NCBI GenBank assembly: GCA_014161675.1
Contig: GCA_014161675.1_4760.1
Reading direction: 5' to 3' (one strand)
Source of the DNA: a phage
DNA: 64,000 nucleotides
Shown here: one piece after another, positions 55,057 through 62,429 of the stretch
How the letters are laid out: each line of letters opens with the position of its first letter
How positions within the stretch are numbered: position 1 is the stretch's first letter
The notes under the pieces: generated by a model
Seen by the model: only the letters and a program-made list of their open reading frames with translations
What the model was told of the DNA's origin: nothing
The model's database searches: none
Program-made: the position numbers and the translations under genes

Positions 55057-55092
55057 TTGATACTCCTTAGTAGTTCGTTTCGGTATGGGTGT

Positions 55093-55121
55093 ATTATGAT
55101 ATACACCATCTGTTATGTCAA
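55093..55121 (-). promoter_or_regulatory. Sigma70-type promoter cassette (minus strand)
   Basis: Minus-strand TTGACA-17-CATAAT, followed by ...CCGAAACGAACT..AGGAGTATCAAATG. Confidence 0.6.
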
Positions 55122-55127
55122 CAACTT

Positions 55128-55307
55128 TTAGAACATTTTTGAAATTAATTCTGCTTTGATTTCGCAGAGAACATCTAAAGATTTCTCGTCACCCGCTTTT
55201 GCTGCTTCTGCTTGCATTTTTGAAATGGCTTCAATGTCAGTGCAATTATAAGCCGCTTGAACTTTAGCGATTGCGATGATTGCCGATTCGATGGTTAAGT
55301 GTTTCAT
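55128..55307 (-). CDS. Hypothetical small protein (59 aa)
   Basis: ATG preceded by AGGAGAATCAAAC; below ORF-track cutoff. Confidence 0.45.
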   Translation of the reverse strand: MKHLTIESAIIAIAKVQAAYNCTDIEAISKMQAEAAKAGDEKSLDVLCEIKAELISKMF

Positions 55308-55339
55308 GTTTGATTCTCCTTTCGTTTCGGTATGTGTGT

Positions 55340-55368
55340 AGTATAGGGGATCACCGATCCCCTGTCAA
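55340..55368 (-). promoter_or_regulatory. Sigma70-type promoter cassette with palindromic spacer (minus strand)
   Basis: Minus-strand TTGACA-GGGGATCGGTGATCCCC-TATACT. Confidence 0.65.
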
Positions 55369-55376
55369 CAACTTTT

Positions 55377-55895
55377 TTAGTTATTTTTTAATTGCTCATC
55401 TTGCAATAGGGCAATCACATGCTGGCGATGTTCTTCCGATTGAGGCACACCGAAAAAGTTTGTTTTGTAGAAATACTCTAATCGGTCTTCTCGTGTGCTC
55501 TCTTCCATCATGATCGCGGGTAGTCCGAGATTTCGGAAACGTCGCTTTTCTGCTGGCGTAAAATCACTGTAATACAACATAGAATCATCATTACCAGCAA
55601 TGCTAAACTCATCCTTCATAAAGGAGAATATTGCGTTTAAACGCTGTTTACCGTCCACGATTTCGATCTCATAGCGAGAGCCATCATCAATCTTAGCCAT
55701 TGCGATAGCACCAACCGGAAAATCATTAATCAGGTTTTCGATAAACATACGTTTGTTTTCTGTGTCCCATACTAAAGGACGCTGATAATCTGGGTTCATG
55801 TTGATATAGCCATCTTCTAACCACGCCTCATAAACAGAGATTACAAAGTTTTTAGTATTGGTATAGTAACGGCGTTTAGGTGTTAAACGGTTCAT
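55377..55895 (-). CDS. DUF262/ParB-like (GmrSD N-terminal-type) domain protein
   Basis: DYQRPLVWD ... FPVGAIAM ... DGKQRL match the DUF262 signatures ((D/E)YQR..VW and DGQQR); start placed at MNRLTPKRR (RBS AGGAGA) rather than ORF-track start 55931. Confidence 0.55.
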   Translation of the reverse strand: MNRLTPKRRYYTNTKNFVISVYEAWLEDGYINMNPDYQRPLVWDTENKRMFIENLINDFPVGAIAMAKIDDGSRYEIEIVDGKQRLNAIFSFMKDEFSIAGNDDSMLYYSDFTPAEKRRFRNLGLPAIMMEESTREDRLEYFYKTNFFGVPQSEEHRQHVIALLQDEQLKNN

Positions 55896-55896
55896 G

Positions 55897-56229
55897 TTAT
55901 AGTCTCCTGAATGGATCATCACGTAAATCAATATCTTTTAAGAACTCATCCCATGAATGGCGGATATTGTTCTTAATTCTCCAGATAAGAGCAGGGATTG
56001 AACGCTCTCCCATCTGGAAGTATGGATCATATGATCCGTATGCCCAATATGCTACTACAATTCCACAATCAGCGCAATAGTATTCTATTTCACTTGCTGG
56101 CGACCAAAGTCCATCAATATGATCGGTGATCTTGCTTTCGATGTTATGGCTATGACAATCAGGGCAACGGATGCAATGACCTTGTTTATCGTAATTTGAC
56201 GTTAGCGAATACTTAAACAATCTCATCAT
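55897..56229 (-). CDS. Zinc-ribbon protein
   Basis: 110 aa with CIRCPDC ... CADC (two CxxC pairs); start overlaps upstream gene stop. Confidence 0.5.
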   Translation of the reverse strand: MMRLFKYSLTSNYDKQGHCIRCPDCHSHNIESKITDHIDGLWSPASEIEYYCADCGIVVAYWAYGSYDPYFQMGERSIPALIWRIKNNIRHSWDEFLKDIDLRDDPFRRL

Positions 56230-56942
56230 AGATCCTTATTTGCTTCAAATACTGCCTTTGCGAATCCTCGCGGGGTAAGTGACCTGATAGTCTTTGTTTT
56301 CGTTCCTTTCCCGCCTAGCTTAGAATGCTGTTTACTGTACCCTTTATTAATCTGCAACGGTTTCTTTTCTGGCATTATAAAGCCTTGTCCGGTCCATAAG
56401 CAAGTCTTTTTCGGGTACATATCACGGGCGGCGATATACTCAGGAAAAGTAGGATGTTTATCATCTTCCGGCAAATAACCGCCATATTCCCACGGGTGGA
56501 ACATGTAATCAGGCTTACGCCACATGCTAGAGATAACGCTTACAGGATTCTCTATCATGTAGGGAACTCCTAGCCATTCACCCAAATAAGCGGTTATTTT
56601 AGCTGCCCTTACATCATGAACTTGAATCAATGGTCCTTGTTCTCGTTTCTTTCGTTCAAAGTGTGCAGCGCCACTAACAGCTAAATTGGTGCACGGTGGG
56701 AATGCAAAGATAATATCCGGTTTCCCCCATTCAAGGTCCATTGCTCTTTCCAGCCAATTCAAATCAATCCAGGTGTTTACATAGGTAATGTTTGGATGTT
56801 CAAATCTGGTATTATACTTTTTGTATGTGCCGTGGTCGCCATCATCAGCATTAAAGCAGATCACCTTATGACCTGCTTTAGCCCATTCTAGCCCCATTAT
56901 CCCCGATCCGTCAAAGTTACAGAATATTAATTTTTGTTTCAT
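56226..56942 (-). CDS. Compact C5-cytosine methyltransferase-like protein
   Basis: Motif I-like FCNFDGSGIMG, motif IV-like FPPC(T), motif VI-like MIENP, C-terminal RSLTPRGFAKA resembling motif IX; only 238 aa with almost no target-recognition region. Confidence 0.5.
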   Translation of the reverse strand: MKQKLIFCNFDGSGIMGLEWAKAGHKVICFNADDGDHGTYKKYNTRFEHPNITYVNTWIDLNWLERAMDLEWGKPDIIFAFPPCTNLAVSGAAHFERKKREQGPLIQVHDVRAAKITAYLGEWLGVPYMIENPVSVISSMWRKPDYMFHPWEYGGYLPEDDKHPTFPEYIAARDMYPKKTCLWTGQGFIMPEKKPLQINKGYSKQHSKLGGKGTKTKTIRSLTPRGFAKAVFEANKDL

Positions 56943-57432: not shown

Positions 57433-57472
57433 TGTTTGATTCTCCTAAGTGGTATCTCGTCTTGATGGTTGT

Positions 57473-57501
57473 ATTGTAGGGGAGTTATCCTCCCCTGTCA
57501 A
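57473..57501 (-). promoter_or_regulatory. Sigma70-type promoter cassette with palindromic spacer (minus strand)
   Basis: Minus-strand TTGACA-GGGGAGGATAACTCCCC-TACAAT then AGGAGAATCAAACAATG. Confidence 0.6.
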
Positions 57502-57515
57502 CACTTTTTATAAAA

Positions 57516-57683
57516 TTATTTGTTAATTTCTGGTGCGTTGCTAGGATAGTAACCTTCTTTAACTCCGAGGTATTTCGCAACCATCCCTACAATCTTCTGT
57601 GCTACTACAATGTCAAATTTCAGATAATCTTCGCCGTGGGTTTCAATGATATATGCTTCACATGCTGCTTTAGTCTCGAACAT
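57516..57683 (-). CDS. Hypothetical small protein (55 aa), paralog of 60774..60941
   Basis: MFETKAACEAYIIETHGEDYLKFDIVVAQKIVGMVAKYLGVKEGYYPSNAPEINK; ~85% DNA identity to the second copy. Confidence 0.5.
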   Translation of the reverse strand: MFETKAACEAYIIETHGEDYLKFDIVVAQKIVGMVAKYLGVKEGYYPSNAPEINK

Positions 57684-57716
57684 TTTGATTCTCCTATTTC
57701 GTTTCGGTATGTGTGT

Positions 57717-57745
57717 ATTATAGGGGATCTCCTGATCCCCGTCAA
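57717..57745 (-). promoter_or_regulatory. Sigma70-type promoter cassette (minus strand)
   Basis: Minus-strand TTGACG-17-TATAAT with palindromic GGGGATC...GATCCCC spacer. Confidence 0.6.
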
Positions 57746-57759
57746 CAACTTTTTTAAAA

Positions 57760-58041
57760 TTATTCGTGATTAGTTTCGATGTTGTGCATTTTGCACCAGT
57801 TCAGCCAATCACCCAGATCCTGATAGCTAATGCTTTTATCTGCTGCCATCGTTTTTGTCTTGATACCCATATGTGCGTTATGAGTAAGCATTTTTACAGT
57901 GAACTCAATTTTATCACCTTTAGCTTTAACATCAACCAGTTTGGTCCACTGGCTACCAGCGCCGCGAATGTTCATACCAACGATGTTTCCGATGTATGCT
58001 TCTTTGTTTTTCAGGATTTCGGTTGCTTTGATGAATTTCAT
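57760..58041 (-). CDS. Hypothetical small protein
   Basis: 93 aa ORF with own promoter cassette. Confidence 0.5.
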   Translation of the reverse strand: MKFIKATEILKNKEAYIGNIVGMNIRGAGSQWTKLVDVKAKGDKIEFTVKMLTHNAHMGIKTKTMAADKSISYQDLGDWLNWCKMHNIETNHE

Positions 58042-58074
58042 TTTTGATTCTCCAGTTCGTTTCGGTATGTGTGT

Positions 58075-58103
58075 ATTATGCTATGTTCTTACTTTGGTGT
58101 CAA
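58075..58103 (-). promoter_or_regulatory. Sigma70-type promoter cassette (minus strand)
   Basis: Minus-strand TTGACA-17-CATAAT. Confidence 0.55.
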
Positions 58104-58111
58104 CAACTTTT

Positions 58112-58381
58112 TTAGATATTTTCAGAAATAAATTTTAAAACTTGACGTAAATGTTTCTCATCTTTGATGGTAGCCGGAAGTTCTTCTTTTACTTCCTGTG
58201 CAAGATAGATATTTCCGTTCCAAGTGAAAGATCCGTCTTCGTTTACGCGATAGCTGAACATCCACTCGCAATCATTTTCGATTTCATATACACACAGAAG
58301 GGTGTAATCGTTAAAGCTATTGATTTCAAGGTCGAAGCCGTGACGTTTTGCAAAGTTGGTAGTGGTTTTAGTCAGTGTCAT
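58112..58381 (-). CDS. Hypothetical small protein
   Basis: 89 aa ORF with own promoter cassette. Confidence 0.5.
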   Translation of the reverse strand: MTLTKTTTNFAKRHGFDLEINSFNDYTLLCVYEIENDCEWMFSYRVNEDGSFTWNGNIYLAQEVKEELPATIKDEKHLRQVLKFISENI

Positions 58382-58421
58382 TGTTTGATTCTCCTAAGTG
58401 GTATCTCGTTTCGATGTGTGT

Positions 58422-58450
58422 ATTATGCTATAGGCCGGATCTGGTGTCAA
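58422..58450 (-). promoter_or_regulatory. Sigma70-type promoter cassette (minus strand)
   Basis: Minus-strand TTGACA-17-CATAAT. Confidence 0.55.
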
Positions 58451-58467
58451 CAACTTTTTTAAAAATT

Positions 58468-58492
58468 TGGGCAATAAAAAGCCGACACTAAG
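58468..58492 (-). terminator. Rho-independent terminator (minus strand) after ORF 58507..58815
   Basis: Minus-strand AGCCGACC-uuag-UGUCGGCU followed by UUUUAUUG. Confidence 0.55.
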
Positions 58493-58506
58493 GTCGGCTA
58501 ATAAAA

Positions 58507-58815
58507 TCATTTAGACAAATAATCATTCTGTGCAATCCGGTCAGCATGTTCCGGCGTTACGTCAATCGCAATCACTTTAACGCGTGCTTTCTTGCGACCT
58601 GGGTTTTCTCGTAACCAGTGCTCATGACCGTGAACATTTTTATACTGCGATGCTTCTTCGAAGGTACGGATCGGACCTGGGTAATCAGCGTAAAGGATCT
58701 CTAGATCTTCGGTGATGTAAAAATATACATCGTAATTGCTGTTCTCTAGCTTAAGCAGAGACTTTCGGAACATTGGGAGATTTTCGCGGGTAAATTCAAA
58801 GATATTATCTTTCAT
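58507..58815 (-). CDS. HxHW-family small protein, paralog A1
   Basis: 102 aa; YFYITEDLEI ... HGHEHW ... VIAIDV shared with five paralogs. Confidence 0.55.
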   Translation of the reverse strand: MKDNIFEFTRENLPMFRKSLLKLENSNYDVYFYITEDLEILYADYPGPIRTFEEASQYKNVHGHEHWLRENPGRKKARVKVIAIDVTPEHADRIAQNDYLSK

Positions 58816-58839
58816 AGTATTATCCTCAATAGTTGGATG

Positions 58840-58860
58840 AAAAGGGGGCTTAACGCCCCC
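58840..58860 (-). terminator. Rho-independent terminator (minus strand) after ORF 58866..59153
   Basis: Minus-strand GGGGGCG-uuaag-CCCCC followed by UUUUCA. Confidence 0.55.
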
Positions 58861-58865
58861 ATATA

Positions 58866-59153
58866 TTAAAACAGCCCTTCCTGTACACCGTAGTAGAGTT
58901 CGTCACTGATAATTTCATTAATGCGACGGTGTGCATATTCCTGATTTGCGAAGTTGTCAGCAAGTTCTACTTTAGTTTCGCCGTCATGAGTCCATTTAGT
59001 GATAACTTTACCATCTGCAAATTTGAAGTTGAACTCTTTAGCTACTGCATCGCGTACCAGACGTGCGAACTTGTTGTTACGGATTGCATTGTCTGTTTCG
59101 TTTGCAGCGTGAGCAAATTTGTTAACTTTCAGAGTGATAGTAATGTATGCCAT
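58866..59153 (-). CDS. Hypothetical small protein
   Basis: 95 aa ORF with own promoter cassette. Confidence 0.5.
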   Translation of the reverse strand: MAYITITLKVNKFAHAANETDNAIRNNKFARLVRDAVAKEFNFKFADGKVITKWTHDGETKVELADNFANQEYAHRRINEIISDELYYGVQEGLF

Positions 59154-59199
59154 AATTTGATTCTCCTAGTTAGAAAGTGTATATCGTTTCGATGGGGAT

Positions 59200-59228
59200 A
59201 TTATGCTATATCCCCGATCCGGTGTCAA
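59200..59228 (-). promoter_or_regulatory. Sigma70-type promoter cassette (minus strand)
   Basis: Minus-strand TTGACA-17-CATAAT with CCGGATCGGGGA...TCCCC palindromic spacer. Confidence 0.55.
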
Positions 59229-59234
59229 CACTTT

Positions 59235-59528
59235 TTATAAAATAATTTTTTGATATTTTTCTATGATGTTCGTGTAAGTCACATCAACCGCTAGCACCGT
59301 TGCTTCGAATCCACCGTTTAGCCAATGGCTATGATCATGATCGTGAAAGAAACCTAGACCAGTACGAAGACCTTCTTTATATTCTGCGCGTACATTCAGT
59401 TTGTCGTCGATAAACAGATAAAACCATGAATTTTTACTAGGATTGATGATACAACCTTTCAGATTAGGGAGAATATCACGACTAAGAATAAACTTATCAC
59501 CTACTTTGAACATAATATTAGTCCTCAC
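59235..59528 (-). CDS. HxHW-family small protein, paralog A2
   Basis: FYLFIDDKLNV ... HDHDHSHW ... VLAVDV. Confidence 0.55.
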   Translation of the reverse strand: MRTNIMFKVGDKFILSRDILPNLKGCIINPSKNSWFYLFIDDKLNVRAEYKEGLRTGLGFFHDHDHSHWLNGGFEATVLAVDVTYTNIIEKYQKIIL

Positions 59529-59838
59529 TTATAAGGTCAAACCAATTGTTTTTCGCATAATGCTTAATGCGTGCTTGATCTGCTTCCGCTGGTGATAGAT
59601 TCCATGCAACCACTACAACTTCTGACGCATCGTCATCCGTTTCTGATACCCAATGATTGTGATTCATACAGTTATTTGCTATCGAGTGAGCAAATGATTT
59701 CATCACTGGAGACGTATAATCATAGTAACGGATTTTCAGATTTTCATCAACGTACAAATAGATCGTATAAGGTTTATATTCAGTAACCAGTAACAGACAG
59801 TTACGCAATTCTGGGAAAATATTTTTAGTTAATTTCAT
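59518..59838 (-). CDS. HxHW-family small protein, paralog A3
   Basis: IYLYVDENLKI ... NHNHW ... VVVVAWNL. Confidence 0.5.
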   Translation of the reverse strand: MKLTKNIFPELRNCLLLVTEYKPYTIYLYVDENLKIRYYDYTSPVMKSFAHSIANNCMNHNHWVSETDDDASEVVVVAWNLSPAEADQARIKHYAKNNWFDLISED

Positions 59839-60052
59839 ATTCTAGTTCTCCGTAATACACGGTAATCCATTTTTCTTCATACTTTGTATCTTTCCAACAC
59901 ACAATCCCGTTTACTGTGCAATCTTTGGAATTGACGAATGATTCATATTGTTCTGCATCTTCCATCATTGCATGAGCGGTCTTTTCATCGAATATATCGC
60001 AGATCGCTTTATATGCTCGATAATCTTTAAATTTGCTCATAATTAAGACCAC
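59825..60052 (-). CDS. Hypothetical small protein, paralog B1
   Basis: MSKFKDYRAYKAI...MMEDAEQ...GIVCWK shared with B2. Confidence 0.5.
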   Translation of the reverse strand: MVLIMSKFKDYRAYKAICDIFDEKTAHAMMEDAEQYESFVNSKDCTVNGIVCWKDTKYEEKWITVYYGELEYEIN

Positions 60053-60258
60053 TCAAGAGTTTTTGAAAACACATCTATCCATTGTTGAGTATATGCGGTT
60101 TCTTTCCATGATACAATACCAGTCGAATAATGGTTTTTGTTTCCAGAAAAGGACGGGCATTTTGAGGCATCTTCCATCATCTTTTCGGCGAACTCTGGTG
60201 CGTATACTCGCAGGATCTGTTGATATGCTTTGTATTCTTTAAATTTGCTCATAATCAT
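60043..60258 (-). CDS. Hypothetical small protein, paralog B2 (tandem duplicate of B1)
   Basis: MSKFKEYKAYQQI...MMEDASK...GIVSWK. Confidence 0.5.
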   Translation of the reverse strand: MIMSKFKEYKAYQQILRVYAPEFAEKMMEDASKCPSFSGNKNHYSTGIVSWKETAYTQQWIDVFSKTLEWS

Positions 60259-60517
60259 TCACTACCTTATCAGCTTCTTTTGTTGTTTTTACATCAACTG
60301 CGATAACTCGTAAAGGTTCGTCATGGTTCCACCAGTGGTCATGAATATCAGCTTGTGATTTATCACCAAAGGAATCACGAATATCATTTTTACATTTATA
60401 GCTAATGTGACCTTCATAGTCAACATAAAGGTAATTATCGAAAATCGGCGTTTTTAAGATCATACCGAAAAATCTTTCTTTGTGTGTCTTATCCAGCGTT
60501 GCAGTAATTCGCATCAT
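60239..60517 (-). CDS. HxHW-family small protein, paralog A4
   Basis: YLYVDYEGHI ... IHDHW ... VIAVDV. Confidence 0.55.
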   Translation of the reverse strand: MMRITATLDKTHKERFFGMILKTPIFDNYLYVDYEGHISYKCKNDIRDSFGDKSQADIHDHWWNHDEPLRVIAVDVKTTKEADKVVNDYEQI

Positions 60518-60529
60518 AATATATTCCTC

Positions 60530-60709
60530 TTAGAAAGGGATGGTCATTTCTTGAGCTTGTACGTTCTCGTTAGGATTAAACTTCATCCAGCCGATATTGT
60601 CTACCAGCATATGCACATTTTTATCATATCCTACGTGGGTAGTCAATACTGTATGTGCTTTACCTTCAATGATGAGTTCCATGTACTTCTGAACTTCGAT
60701 AGCTTTCAT
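60530..60709 (-). CDS. Hypothetical small protein (59 aa)
   Basis: ATG preceded by AGGAGAATCAAA and a promoter cassette; below ORF-track cutoff. Confidence 0.4.
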   Translation of the reverse strand: MKAIEVQKYMELIIEGKAHTVLTTHVGYDKNVHMLVDNIGWMKFNPNENVQAQEMTIPF

Positions 60710-60741
60710 TTTGATTCTCCGTTTGTTGTCTTGATGGGAGT

Positions 60742-60770
60742 ATCTTACTACTCCCTTTAATCATTGTCAA
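60742..60770 (-). promoter_or_regulatory. Sigma70-type promoter cassette (weaker -10)
   Basis: Minus-strand TTGACA-17-TAAGAT with GGGAG...CTCCC palindromic spacer. Confidence 0.45.
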
Positions 60771-60773
60771 CTA

Positions 60774-60941
60774 TTATTTGTTAATTTCTGGTGCGTTGCT
60801 CGGATAGTAACCTTCTTTAACACCCAGATATTTTGCGACCATTCCGGTGATCTTCTGTGCTACTACGATATCGAATTTCAGGTAATCTTCACCGTGGTTT
60901 GCTACAATGTATGCTTCGCATTCTGCTTTAGTCTGGAACAT
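60774..60941 (-). CDS. Hypothetical small protein (55 aa), paralog of 57516..57683
   Basis: MFQTKAECEAYIVANHGEDYLKFDIVVAQKITGMVAKYLGVKEGYYPSNAPEINK; start taken at internal Met supported by RBS and by the paralog. Confidence 0.5.
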   Translation of the reverse strand: MFQTKAECEAYIVANHGEDYLKFDIVVAQKITGMVAKYLGVKEGYYPSNAPEINK

Positions 60942-60974
60942 TTTTATTCTCCCATATCTCGTTGGTATGTGTGC

Positions 60975-61003
60975 ATTATAGGGGATCACCGATCCCCTGT
61001 CAA
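60975..61003 (-). promoter_or_regulatory. Sigma70-type promoter cassette with palindromic spacer
   Basis: Minus-strand TTGACA-GGGGATCGGTGATCCCC-TATAAT. Confidence 0.65.
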
Positions 61004-61008
61004 CAACT

Positions 61009-61302
61009 TTATAATGCTTTATATGCGTATTTCATAAATTTGTCTGCCACTTCATTGGCATGTTCAGATTCTACGCCTGATTCGAGAACAATAGCTAGGT
61101 CGGTTTCGTCATTCCCGCCGTACCAATGATTTGATGTTCGATTTTTTTCAATTGGAAATTGGTCACTTTTATCTGTGCGACAAAATACATCTAAATGCTC
61201 GTCGATGTAAAAGATCCAATCTTCATAAAGAATAACGGTATTAGCCAGATTTTTATTGCCTTCAACGAAAGGTTCGGCTACAAACAAATTAGTATGTTCC
61301 AT
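61009..61302 (-). CDS. HxHW-family small protein, paralog A5 (divergent)
   Basis: WIFYIDEHLDV ... SNHW ... AIVLES. Confidence 0.45.
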   Translation of the reverse strand: MEHTNLFVAEPFVEGNKNLANTVILYEDWIFYIDEHLDVFCRTDKSDQFPIEKNRTSNHWYGGNDETDLAIVLESGVESEHANEVADKFMKYAYKAL

Positions 61303-61359
61303 AGTATTTTCCTCAATTTGTGGGAGAGTATTGCCCCTCCCGATGTCTGTTATATTACA

Positions 61360-61680
61360 TTACACAAAATGGCGTTTCAATGCTTCTTTTGCGGTTCCGC
61401 TAAGACTTTCGATCTCGCCTGGCATAACATCAACTGCCAGAACTTCTACAACATCCTCTGACCCCAACCAGTGAGTATGACCTTTGTAGAACTTGATAAC
61501 CAGACTACCTTCCTCATCCCATTTAACGCTATCGCTAGCCCACCACACATCACCGTCGATAAAGTTGATGTAAAGCACACTACGCCACATTGAATTAATT
61601 ACTTTCAATACTGCGCCTTTCATATCTTCCACGGTGTGGTCTTCCATTTTGAAGACCTCGCCTACCTGAACTTTTGCCAT
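61360..61680 (-). CDS. HxHW-family small protein, paralog A6
   Basis: LYINFIDGDV ... GHTHW ... VLAVDV. Confidence 0.55.
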   Translation of the reverse strand: MAKVQVGEVFKMEDHTVEDMKGAVLKVINSMWRSVLYINFIDGDVWWASDSVKWDEEGSLVIKFYKGHTHWLGSEDVVEVLAVDVMPGEIESLSGTAKEALKRHFV

Positions 61681-61877: not shown

Positions 61878-61911
61878 GTTTGATTCTCCTAGTTCGTTTC
61901 GGTATGTGTGT

Positions 61912-61940
61912 AGTATAGGGGATCACCGATCCCCTGTCAA
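61912..61940 (-). promoter_or_regulatory. Sigma70-type promoter cassette with palindromic spacer
   Basis: Minus-strand TTGACA-GGGGATCGGTGATCCCC-TATACT; identical to the cassette at 55340..55368. Confidence 0.65.
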
Positions 61941-61952
61941 CAACTTTTTGAA

Positions 61953-62429
61953 TTATTTTTCTTGATGCTCGCGATCGTACTTTTCGAAATAAAATTCTAC
62001 TGGCTGGTCGTGGATTGACAGCAAGCCAAAGCGTTTAGCCGCTCGCAATCCCATATTGCGCTGAATGTACTTCTGGAAGTTCTCGCGTATACACTTACGC
62101 CAGGATTCTAAGCCCATGCAGCTTTTATAAAGATTGCATTGCACACACGCCGGATTCATGTTATCAAGTATATCATGCTCCGGTTTATGCATTCCTACAA
62201 CCTTATACTTCCACGATCCATCATCATTACGGGCAATTCGTCCATTTTCATCATAGACTACCTTTGAGCGTCGCAATACTGGTTTGATGTGGTCTGCGTG
62301 CCAGCGATCCCCTAGTTCCTCGCCACAATAGGCACAACGTCCACCATATTTCATTTTCAGGATCTGGCGTTGATCTTTCTTTGACAATTTTTTAGGTTTA
62401 GGGGCTTTCGCCCCTTCATTATCACACAT
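61953..62429 (-). CDS. HNH endonuclease (free-standing, putative homing endonuclease)
   Basis: CAYCGEEL...WHADHIKPV...NMNPACVQCNLYK (Cys pairs flanking H-x-D-H and Asn); start overlaps the ligase stop. Confidence 0.7.
   Translation of the reverse strand: MCDNEGAKAPKPKKLSKKDQRQILKMKYGGRCAYCGEELGDRWHADHIKPVLRRSKVVYDENGRIARNDDGSWKYKVVGMHKPEHDILDNMNPACVQCNLYKSCMGLESWRKCIRENFQKYIQRNMGLRAAKRFGLLSIHDQPVEFYFEKYDREHQEK

Follow-up and report, generated by a model that had tools for sequence, protein, structure and literature searches.

Six anciently diverged paralogues with a His-x-His-Trp motif between gene 30 and alt of an RB49-like phage

Identification of the six genes

The DNA analysed here, referred to as the window, comprises 64,000 nucleotides (nt) of phage sequence from contig GCA_014161675.1_4760.1 (GenBank assembly GCA_014161675.1). 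It carries six minus-strand open reading frames (ORFs), named F1 to F6 below, which belong to one family of long-diverged paralogues and share a conserved His-x-His-Trp (HxHW) core. All six were found where the initial annotation, made from the letters alone, had placed them, and each histidine cluster it quoted (HGHEHW, HDHDHSHW, NHNHW, IHDHW, SNHW and GHTHW) was present.

F1 (58507-58815) encodes 102 amino acids (aa) with HEHW at residues 64-67 (58615-58626). F2 (59235-59513, 92 aa) carries HSHW at 59322-59333 within HDHDHSHW, F3 (59518-59838, 106 aa) HNHW at 59650-59661, and F4 (60239-60517, 92 aa) HDHW at 60332-60343. F5 (61009-61302, 97 aa) reads SNHW at 61123-61134, the first His being lost in this allele, and F6 (61360-61680, 106 aa) has HTHW at 61468-61479. 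The corresponding names in phage phi1 are ORF197 (F1), ORF199 (F2), ORF200 (F3), ORF203 (F4), ORF206 (F5) and ORF208 (F6). A Shine-Dalgarno sequence lies 6-9 nt ahead of an ATG in each of the six. The F2 ORF extends to 59528, and translation most likely starts at ATG 59513 because a GAGGA Shine-Dalgarno precedes this codon and GTG 59528 falls inside it.

Invariant columns in the six-way alignment were M1, H66, W67 and V81 (F1 numbering). Across 26 diverse members the core reads [H]-[NDEST]-H-W, in which H-W never varies; at least 90% of 24-26 members retain the first His. Extra His residues are stacked around the motif in several paralogues, as in HGHEHW, HDHDHSHW and HDHWWNHDH. Asp, Glu and Asn make up 37% of the residues near the motif versus 22% elsewhere, and His 3.6% versus 1.9% (p = 0.05, counted over non-independent sequences). 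The C-terminal (V/I)(L/I)A(V/I)DV strand described initially held strictly in four of the six copies, F3 reading VVAWNL and F5 VLESGV at this place. Family proteins are small (84-114 aa), soluble and mostly acidic, with isoelectric points of 4.5-6.9 and a negative grand average of hydropathy (GRAVY).

Family assignment and distribution

For the leave-one-out test, a profile of five copies was run against every window ORF of 40 aa or more (334 in total). The omitted copy ranked first among the non-training ORFs in every search, with E values from 1.8e-14 to 9.9e-5 (F1 1.8e-14, F2 2.9e-8, F3 8.4e-12, F4 4.2e-6, F5 9.9e-5, F6 8.5e-7), and the best unrelated window ORF had E >= 0.047. Profile-profile comparison (hhalign) of the F5/ORF206 subgroup, the weakest, with all other members gave a probability of 98.3% and E 1.1e-14. 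Identity between paralogues is 20-31%; pairwise BLASTP joined some pairs only, and F5 to none of the other five. The six-member family proposed initially is thus borne out alike by leave-one-out profiles, six-way alignment and hhalign. The profile hidden Markov model (HMM) comparison that had been recommended for it gave significant shared ancestry, so that six unrelated ORFs are ruled out. A seventh member was found neither among the 334 window ORFs by the leave-one-out profiles nor in the complete 163.5-kb ELT3 genome, which holds exactly six copies, all in one region between gene 30 and alt.

A 4-kb segment that holds the array is 94-96.5% DNA-identical to Krischvirus genomes (ELT3, JEP8, ECD7, RB49, phi1-like). 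It is matched by 59 phage records, 51 of which cover at least 80% of it. By its sequence the window belongs to Krischvirus, that is, to an RB49/phi1-like T4-type coliphage. In annotated relatives, DNA ligase (gene 30), with an HNH gene next to it, borders the array on one side and the Alt ADP-ribosyltransferase gene does so on the other; all genes between gene 30/HNH and alt are annotated there as hypothetical. This is the non-core hyperplastic gene 30-alt region, equivalent to phi1 ORF185-ORF212 and rich in promoter-early-stem-loop (PeSL) cassettes.

When 5.8 billion proteins were searched with a word-indexed profile method, 85 clusters came back; every one is an orthologue (69-99% identical) of one of the six, none carries a name, and most come from contigs of ~165 kb. 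Exhaustive HMMER searching of 1.84 billion representative proteins gave only 23 clusters at E <= 1e-3, about 20 of which were true. Three long repetitive proteins (P0098, P0101 and P0102) were discarded as spurious, the match being a single hairpin-length stretch. Divergent metagenomic members used as tblastn queries against 50,697 phage records matched Krischvirus only, and a search of IMG/VR with single divergent members returned nothing. Judged by these searches, the family is restricted to Krischvirus-like phages. PHROGs divides it among five families of unknown function, phrog_9345 (F1 and F3), phrog_17255 (F2), phrog_15972 (F4), phrog_16486 (F6) and phrog_15965. Window proteins match their own PHROG at E 1e-48 to 4e-71, and cross-matches between the PHROGs are weak (E 8e-5 to 9e-3).

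Structure prediction

An AlphaFold2 (AF2) model of F1 was built from a 24-sequence alignment and reached a predicted local distance difference test score (pLDDT) of 84 and a predicted template modelling score (pTM) of 0.79. An alignment led by the tandem two-domain protein P0088 spread single-domain members over both halves and was set aside for structure prediction. The F1 model starts with a short strand and a short helix, followed by three strands (residues 19-45) and a less confident loop (46-63). A short helix with HEHW (64-68), a fifth strand (78-84) and a C-terminal helix (88-100) complete it. An independent AF2 model of F5 (pLDDT 84.6) has the same order of elements. The common predicted fold comprises five beta-strands and a C-terminal helix. 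Its HxHW is placed where strand 4 leads into strand 5, within a stretch that holds many Asp, Glu and Asn residues. The fold is confidently predicted and has no solved relative.

Selection analysis and age of the paralogues

Orthologues of the six genes and of 13 neighbouring genes were taken from nine other Krischvirus genomes (10 with the window). The six family genes were intact in 10/10 genomes, and their orthologues were 88-97% identical. Pooled Nei-Gojobori ratios of nonsynonymous to synonymous substitution (dN/dS) for F1 to F6 were 0.19, 0.16, 0.23, 0.14, 0.24 and 0.10; these are crude estimates that ignore recombination and are blind to single selected sites. They fall inside the range of the neighbouring genes (0.00-0.25), towards its upper end. 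By structural segment, HxHW was the most constrained (0.07), followed by the sheet (0.11) and by the loops and C-terminal helix (0.18-0.30), none of which approaches 1. All six genes are kept by purifying selection.

A short contig of a divergent relative (L002) has a similar gene order, with ORF209-like (67%), F6-like (48%) and ORF204-like (54%) genes, a tandem two-domain protein, and F4-like (38%) and F3-like (43%) genes. Since orthologues of F3, F4 and F6 occur there at 38-48% identity, the paralogue subfamilies predate that split. That paralogues share so little identity thus reflects age and not ongoing rapid divergence. The initial annotation had taken the family to be rapidly diversifying under an arms race and had called for a dN/dS comparison of the copies. 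Carried out on pooled orthologues, this comparison gave purifying selection, and rapid diversification under an arms race is not supported: orthologue values of 0.10-0.24, no segment above 0.30 and an old divergence of the paralogues all speak against it.

Allele, cassette and copy-number variation

Plasticity of the family arises by allele or cassette replacement, loop indels and gene fusions. F5 occurs in two allele classes that are 69% identical. The class of the window, found in 8/10 genomes, reads TSNHW and ESGV, and the minority class (phi1, JK32) keeps the consensus THNHW together with ASDV. Because the minority allele matches the family consensus T-H-N-H-W, the commonest F5 allele must have lost the first conserved His. 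A second F4 allele class of ~56% identity was found in phi1 and in two 170-kb Krischvirus contigs (L016/L017; 96% ligase identity), and F6 of relatives has indels of -6 and +4 aa directly upstream of the motif.

Contigs L016/L017 also carry six copies, with F2 and F3 replaced by two divergent F3-like paralogues (L016:9651-10327, L017:4437-5113) that are 47% and 58% identical to F3. Such a change is cassette or allele replacement in a genome that is otherwise near-identical. A more distant contig (L018; 72% ligase identity) has two copies only, both F5-like and still located between ligase and alt.

Frameshifted or truncated versions of F1 and F5 were seen in some isolates (P0084 of phage JSE; P0074 of phage kvi, kvi_65; P0085). 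Individual copies can therefore be lost.

Transcription signals

An intergenic repeat of ~65 nt with TTGACA-17-TATAAT-like hexamers, several copies of which hold a GGGGATC...GATCCCC stem in the spacer, occurs at least nine times (55074-55141, 55321-55388, 57454-57521, 57698-57765, 58056-58123, 58403-58470, 59179-59242, 60956-61023 and 61893-61960). By these signatures the repeats are identified as the PeSL cassettes of RB49/phi1. The copies at about 58403, 59179, 60956 and 61893 lie inside the array or adjoin it. They also yield spurious plus-strand ORFs with similar C-termini (58151-58462 and 58929-59240).

Four promoter candidates on the minus strand relate to the family. A PeSL early promoter at 61912-61940 (TTGACA-17-TATACT with a GGGGATC..GATCCCC spacer stem; PeSL as defined in PMC2839356) lies upstream of ORF209, F6 and F5. 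Directly downstream of F5, the PeSL206/205 promoter (60975-61003; TTGACA-17-TATAAT, 12/12 match) drives ORF205; the homologous element was a strong promoter of about 13,000 Miller units in a lacZ fusion, and another PeSL showed terminator activity (PMC2839356). A promoter-like site at 60742-60770 (TTGACA-17-TAAGAT, a consensus match only) precedes ORF204, F4, ORF202, ORF201, F3 and F2. The PeSL promoter at 59200-59228 (TTGACA-17-CATAAT) is located upstream of ORF198 and F1. Between these two genes, the minus strand holds a GC-rich hairpin with a T-run, resembling an attenuator or terminator (58844-58860), and in Ec_Makalu_003 the annotation shows a terminator at the corresponding position. A further terminator-like hairpin follows F1 on the same strand (58480-58499).

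The likely transcription units are ORF209-F6-F5 from the PeSL at 61940, ORF204-F4-ORF202-ORF201-F3-F2 from the site at 60770, and ORF198-hairpin-F1-terminator from the PeSL at 59228. PeSLs stand on both sides of the ORF198-F1 unit only; the other copies share transcription units. No T4-type late promoter (TATAAATA) was found on the coding strand of the region. The early-expressed accessory region assumed initially agrees with the position in the hyperplastic gene 30-alt region and with the sigma-70-type PeSL promoters.

Fusions and candidate partners

Two fusions were found on metagenomic contigs. P0088, the tandem two-domain protein of the divergent relative (L002:823-1434), has 203 aa and two HxHW domains, both closest to F2 (28-29% identity). 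On contig L015 (318-1100), one 260-aa ORF joins ORF202-like, ORF201-like and F3-like domains. The same three domains are encoded by adjacent minus-strand genes in the window, where the tandem paralogues ORF202 (60043-60252) and ORF201 (59825-60040; both phrog_8471, unknown function) lie upstream of F3, ORF201 immediately so. A third contig (L003, 95-331) has an ORF201/202-like gene directly ahead of an F3-like gene. By Rosetta-stone reasoning, the fusions imply that family members may act in pairs, and they suggest that F3 is functionally partnered with the ORF201/202 proteins.

Function scans and comparison with known systems

Scans of Pfam, NCBIfam and PHROGs with the six proteins and 26 diverse members gave no consistent named family, and no Pfam or NCBIfam model covers the family. 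Hits to PROCT, TTL, T4_Y03C, Cupin_2 and MSC_0621 epsilon were judged to be chance, each occurring in one or two members and all below cut-off. A profile search of PDB sequences gave no match at E <= 10. The fold search against solved structures, which included the anti-defence proteins solved in the PDB up to April 2026, detected no similar protein, and known anti-defence families with solved structures were set aside for this lack of structural similarity. Significant Foldseek matches in BFVD were family members only. The initial statement that function cannot be assigned from sequence therefore still stands: none of the Pfam, NCBIfam, PHROGs, PDB and fold searches yielded a transferable function.

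Marginal BFVD matches (E 0.04 and 0.08; template modelling scores 0.45-0.60) were M4SRW3 of Pseudoalteromonas phage pYD6-A (87 aa) and A0A5B8RLJ1 of Escherichia phage Henu7 (111 aa), both uncharacterised. They may be remote structural relatives or noise.

Several motif-based assignments were considered and rejected. HIT proteins carry His-phi-His-phi-His-phi-phi on a C-terminal strand, and the zinc site of alpha-carbonic anhydrase includes His-Phe-His-Trp and has three His ligands, a His-x-His plus a distal His. The local His-x-His(-Trp) string, extended to His-x-His-x-His in F1 and F2, resembles both. In contrast, the HxHW domain has ~95 aa and no conserved third His, and the F1 model puts the motif in a short helix or loop instead of a beta-strand. 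No HIT profile or fold match was obtained. The alpha-carbonic-anhydrase site was discounted for want of a third invariant His, for size (84-114 aa against a beta-sheet fold of roughly 260 aa) and for lack of any sequence or fold match. An HNH endonuclease was excluded since no member matches PF01844, whereas the neighbouring gene at 61953-62429 does, and since H-N-H is contiguous here, unlike the spaced H...N...H residues of the beta-beta-alpha-metal fold. The source label of P0072, 'KOW2-KOW3 domains of Spt5', pointed to a KOW/SH3-like barrel; neither a KOW-profile nor an SH3-like structural match was found.

Small early anti-defence and host-takeover proteins of T-even phages include signal sponges and enzyme inhibitors. 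The HxHW family is like them in its small size, early promoters, accessory region, narrow taxon range and acidity, which is a functional analogy only, and unlike them in that it lacks structural similarity to any solved one. With the ORFans of the RB49/phi1 PeSL region (Arbiol et al. 2010, PMC2839356; Comeau et al. 2014, PMC4122927) it shares the identical region and the PeSL cassettes; the region again shows cassette-type presence/absence variation, with ORF207 and ORF210 missing from the window and F2 replaced in L016/L017. It differs in that six of these genes are here unified as one family and in that F2 to F6 sit inside multi-gene units, not in single PeSL-flanked cassettes. The words 'paralog' and 'gene family' do not occur in PMC2839356, where these genes are individual ORFans. 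Literature searches on anti-defence or early genes of RB49/Krischvirus, or on the RB49 locus names, found no paper on these genes.

Interpretation

The six genes may encode early effector or adaptor modules, active as homo- or hetero-oligomers, in which HxH(W) is a shared functional site and loops and helix set target specificity; we give this reading a probability of roughly 0.3. The proteins would be made immediately after infection and act in the cytoplasm as host-directed modules for host takeover or counter-defence. They would form pairs or larger assemblies among themselves and with the ORF201/202 proteins. The His-x-His(-Trp) segment would be the common functional site, most plausibly coordinating a divalent cation, either between subunits or completed by nearby acidic residues, or else binding a phosphate-bearing ligand. 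Paralogue-specific loops flanking the motif, together with the C-terminal helix, would give each copy its own target. This mechanism is favoured because the constraint on the motif is extreme, extra His and Asp/Glu/Asn residues lie near it, fusions occur, the subfamilies were long retained and the context is early and accessory. A distinct role for each paralogue is suggested by the divergent relative, in which the order of the F3, F4 and F6 subfamilies and of the linked genes ORF209 and ORF204 is conserved.

Several points weigh against it. Pfam, NCBIfam, PHROGs, PDB and fold searches gave no functional homology. The commonest F5 allele (SNHW) and P0087 lack the first His; a two-His site can therefore not be essential to all members, and strict invariance is confined to His-Trp. 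The Asp/Asn of 'AVDV' and the 'YIDE' turn look structural (helix N-cap and hairpin turn) and not like metal ligands. The enrichment of extra His is marginal and was counted over sequences that are not independent. Early expression is inferred, on good grounds, from promoter type. Each fusion is known from a single short metagenomic contig (L002, L015), and the two copies of L018 mean that six are not needed in every lineage.

The main rival, held to be about as probable, sees His-x-His-Trp as a structural keystone only, in which the Trp packs into the core and the His caps or hydrogen-bonds the loop; the proteins would then be metal-free stoichiometric binders or inhibitors of host proteins, with all specificity and activity in variable surfaces. 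Strict invariance of His-Trp only, and a major F5 allele without the first His, would be expected in that case. The remaining conservation falls on residues of the hydrophobic core or of turns, there is no likeness to any known metalloprotein or enzyme fold, and the proteins are small and acidic, as many phage inhibitor proteins are. A purely structural role, however, leaves the stacked extra His (HGHEHW, HDHDHSHW, HDHWWNHDH) unexplained, and it sits poorly with a first His kept in at least 90% of diverse members and a motif that is the most constrained segment (dN/dS 0.07).

An enzymatic role is unlikely. In this reading the proteins would be very small enzymes that depend on His, such as dimeric phosphodiesterases or hydrolases, and would break down an immune nucleotide signal of the host or a nucleic acid, each subunit bringing one HxH to a shared active site. 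2H and HIT enzymes use paired or clustered His motifs, an analogy that serves as a lead only. The conserved His-x-His in an acidic loop, the tandem fusion P0088, which suggests that two domains act together, and the early expression context would suit such an activity. Yet no sequence or fold similarity to HIT, 2H, metallo-beta-lactamase, HNH or other enzyme families was detected, and the domain is very small, with few invariant polar residues. Six long-kept paralogues and a His-deficient major allele would also be unusual for a single catalytic activity.

Less probable still is that the genes are selfish or near-neutral ORFan cargo without host-directed function, multiplied and shuffled by PeSL recombination. 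The array does sit where shuffling through PeSL mini-circles was described (PMC2839356), next to other duplicates (ORF191/205 and ORF201/202); frameshifted copies exist in JSE and kvi, and copy composition varies between genomes. Against this stand the purifying selection on all six, their integrity in 10/10 genomes, subfamilies kept at 38-48% identity and in partly conserved order in a divergent relative, and direct PeSL adjacency for some copies only. Chance likeness of short motifs in six unrelated ORFs is excluded: certain pairs, such as F5 and every other copy, lack a significant BLASTP match, but the leave-one-out E values of 2e-14 to 1e-4 against noise at E >= 0.05, the hhalign result for F5 (98.3%, E 1e-14), Foldseek matches among the paralogue models in BFVD and an identical predicted topology from independent alignments decide against it.

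A bolder reading, unlikely as a whole, sees the family as a new small fold whose homo- or hetero-oligomers share a His-lined metal or nucleotide pocket. Krischviruses would keep its six specialised copies, some of them working with ORF201/202, and each would neutralise a different host immune system or signal within the first minutes of infection.

The genes themselves were already on record as hypothetical proteins of dozens of genomes, and their region is of a kind that has been well studied. The novelty is modest: six ORFans from five PHROGs become one family, its motif is defined and a predicted fold without solved relative is described. Also new are the old, selected paralogues with cassette replacement and the fusions as leads to partner proteins. 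T4-type phages carry hundreds of small early ORFans, and recent work keeps finding counter-defence and host-takeover roles among such genes. The six are clearly delimited and simple to clone, which suits them to defence-system screens, to pull-downs and to structure determination. They also qualify the PeSL-shuffling picture, in that part of the hyperplastic content is an old retained paralogue array and not only recent cassettes. Should nothing host-directed emerge, they would be an ordinary lineage-specific ORFan family.

Further features of the region

The HNH-type endonuclease gene at 61953-62429 (158 aa; PF01844, phrog_2118) overlaps the end of the ligase gene. On the other side of the cluster lies a 238-aa ORF (56226-56942), for which the annotations of relatives give a C-5 cytosine (Dcm-like) DNA methyltransferase.

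Two small genes of relatives are absent from the window. ORF207 (63 aa), present in phi1, ELT3, kaaroe and others, would belong between F5 and F6 (61303-61359), and ORF210 (103 aa), present in phi1, kaaroe and others, between ORF209 and the HNH gene (61878-61952). No remnant of either was traced in the window by blastn. Their absence resembles the cassette-type indels that have been ascribed to PeSL recombination.

A direct duplication of 238 nt (57515-57752 and 60773-61010; 84% identical) spans the 55-aa ORF191/ORF205 pair (phrog_8009) and the adjoining PeSL. It is much younger than the duplications that gave rise to the HxHW family.

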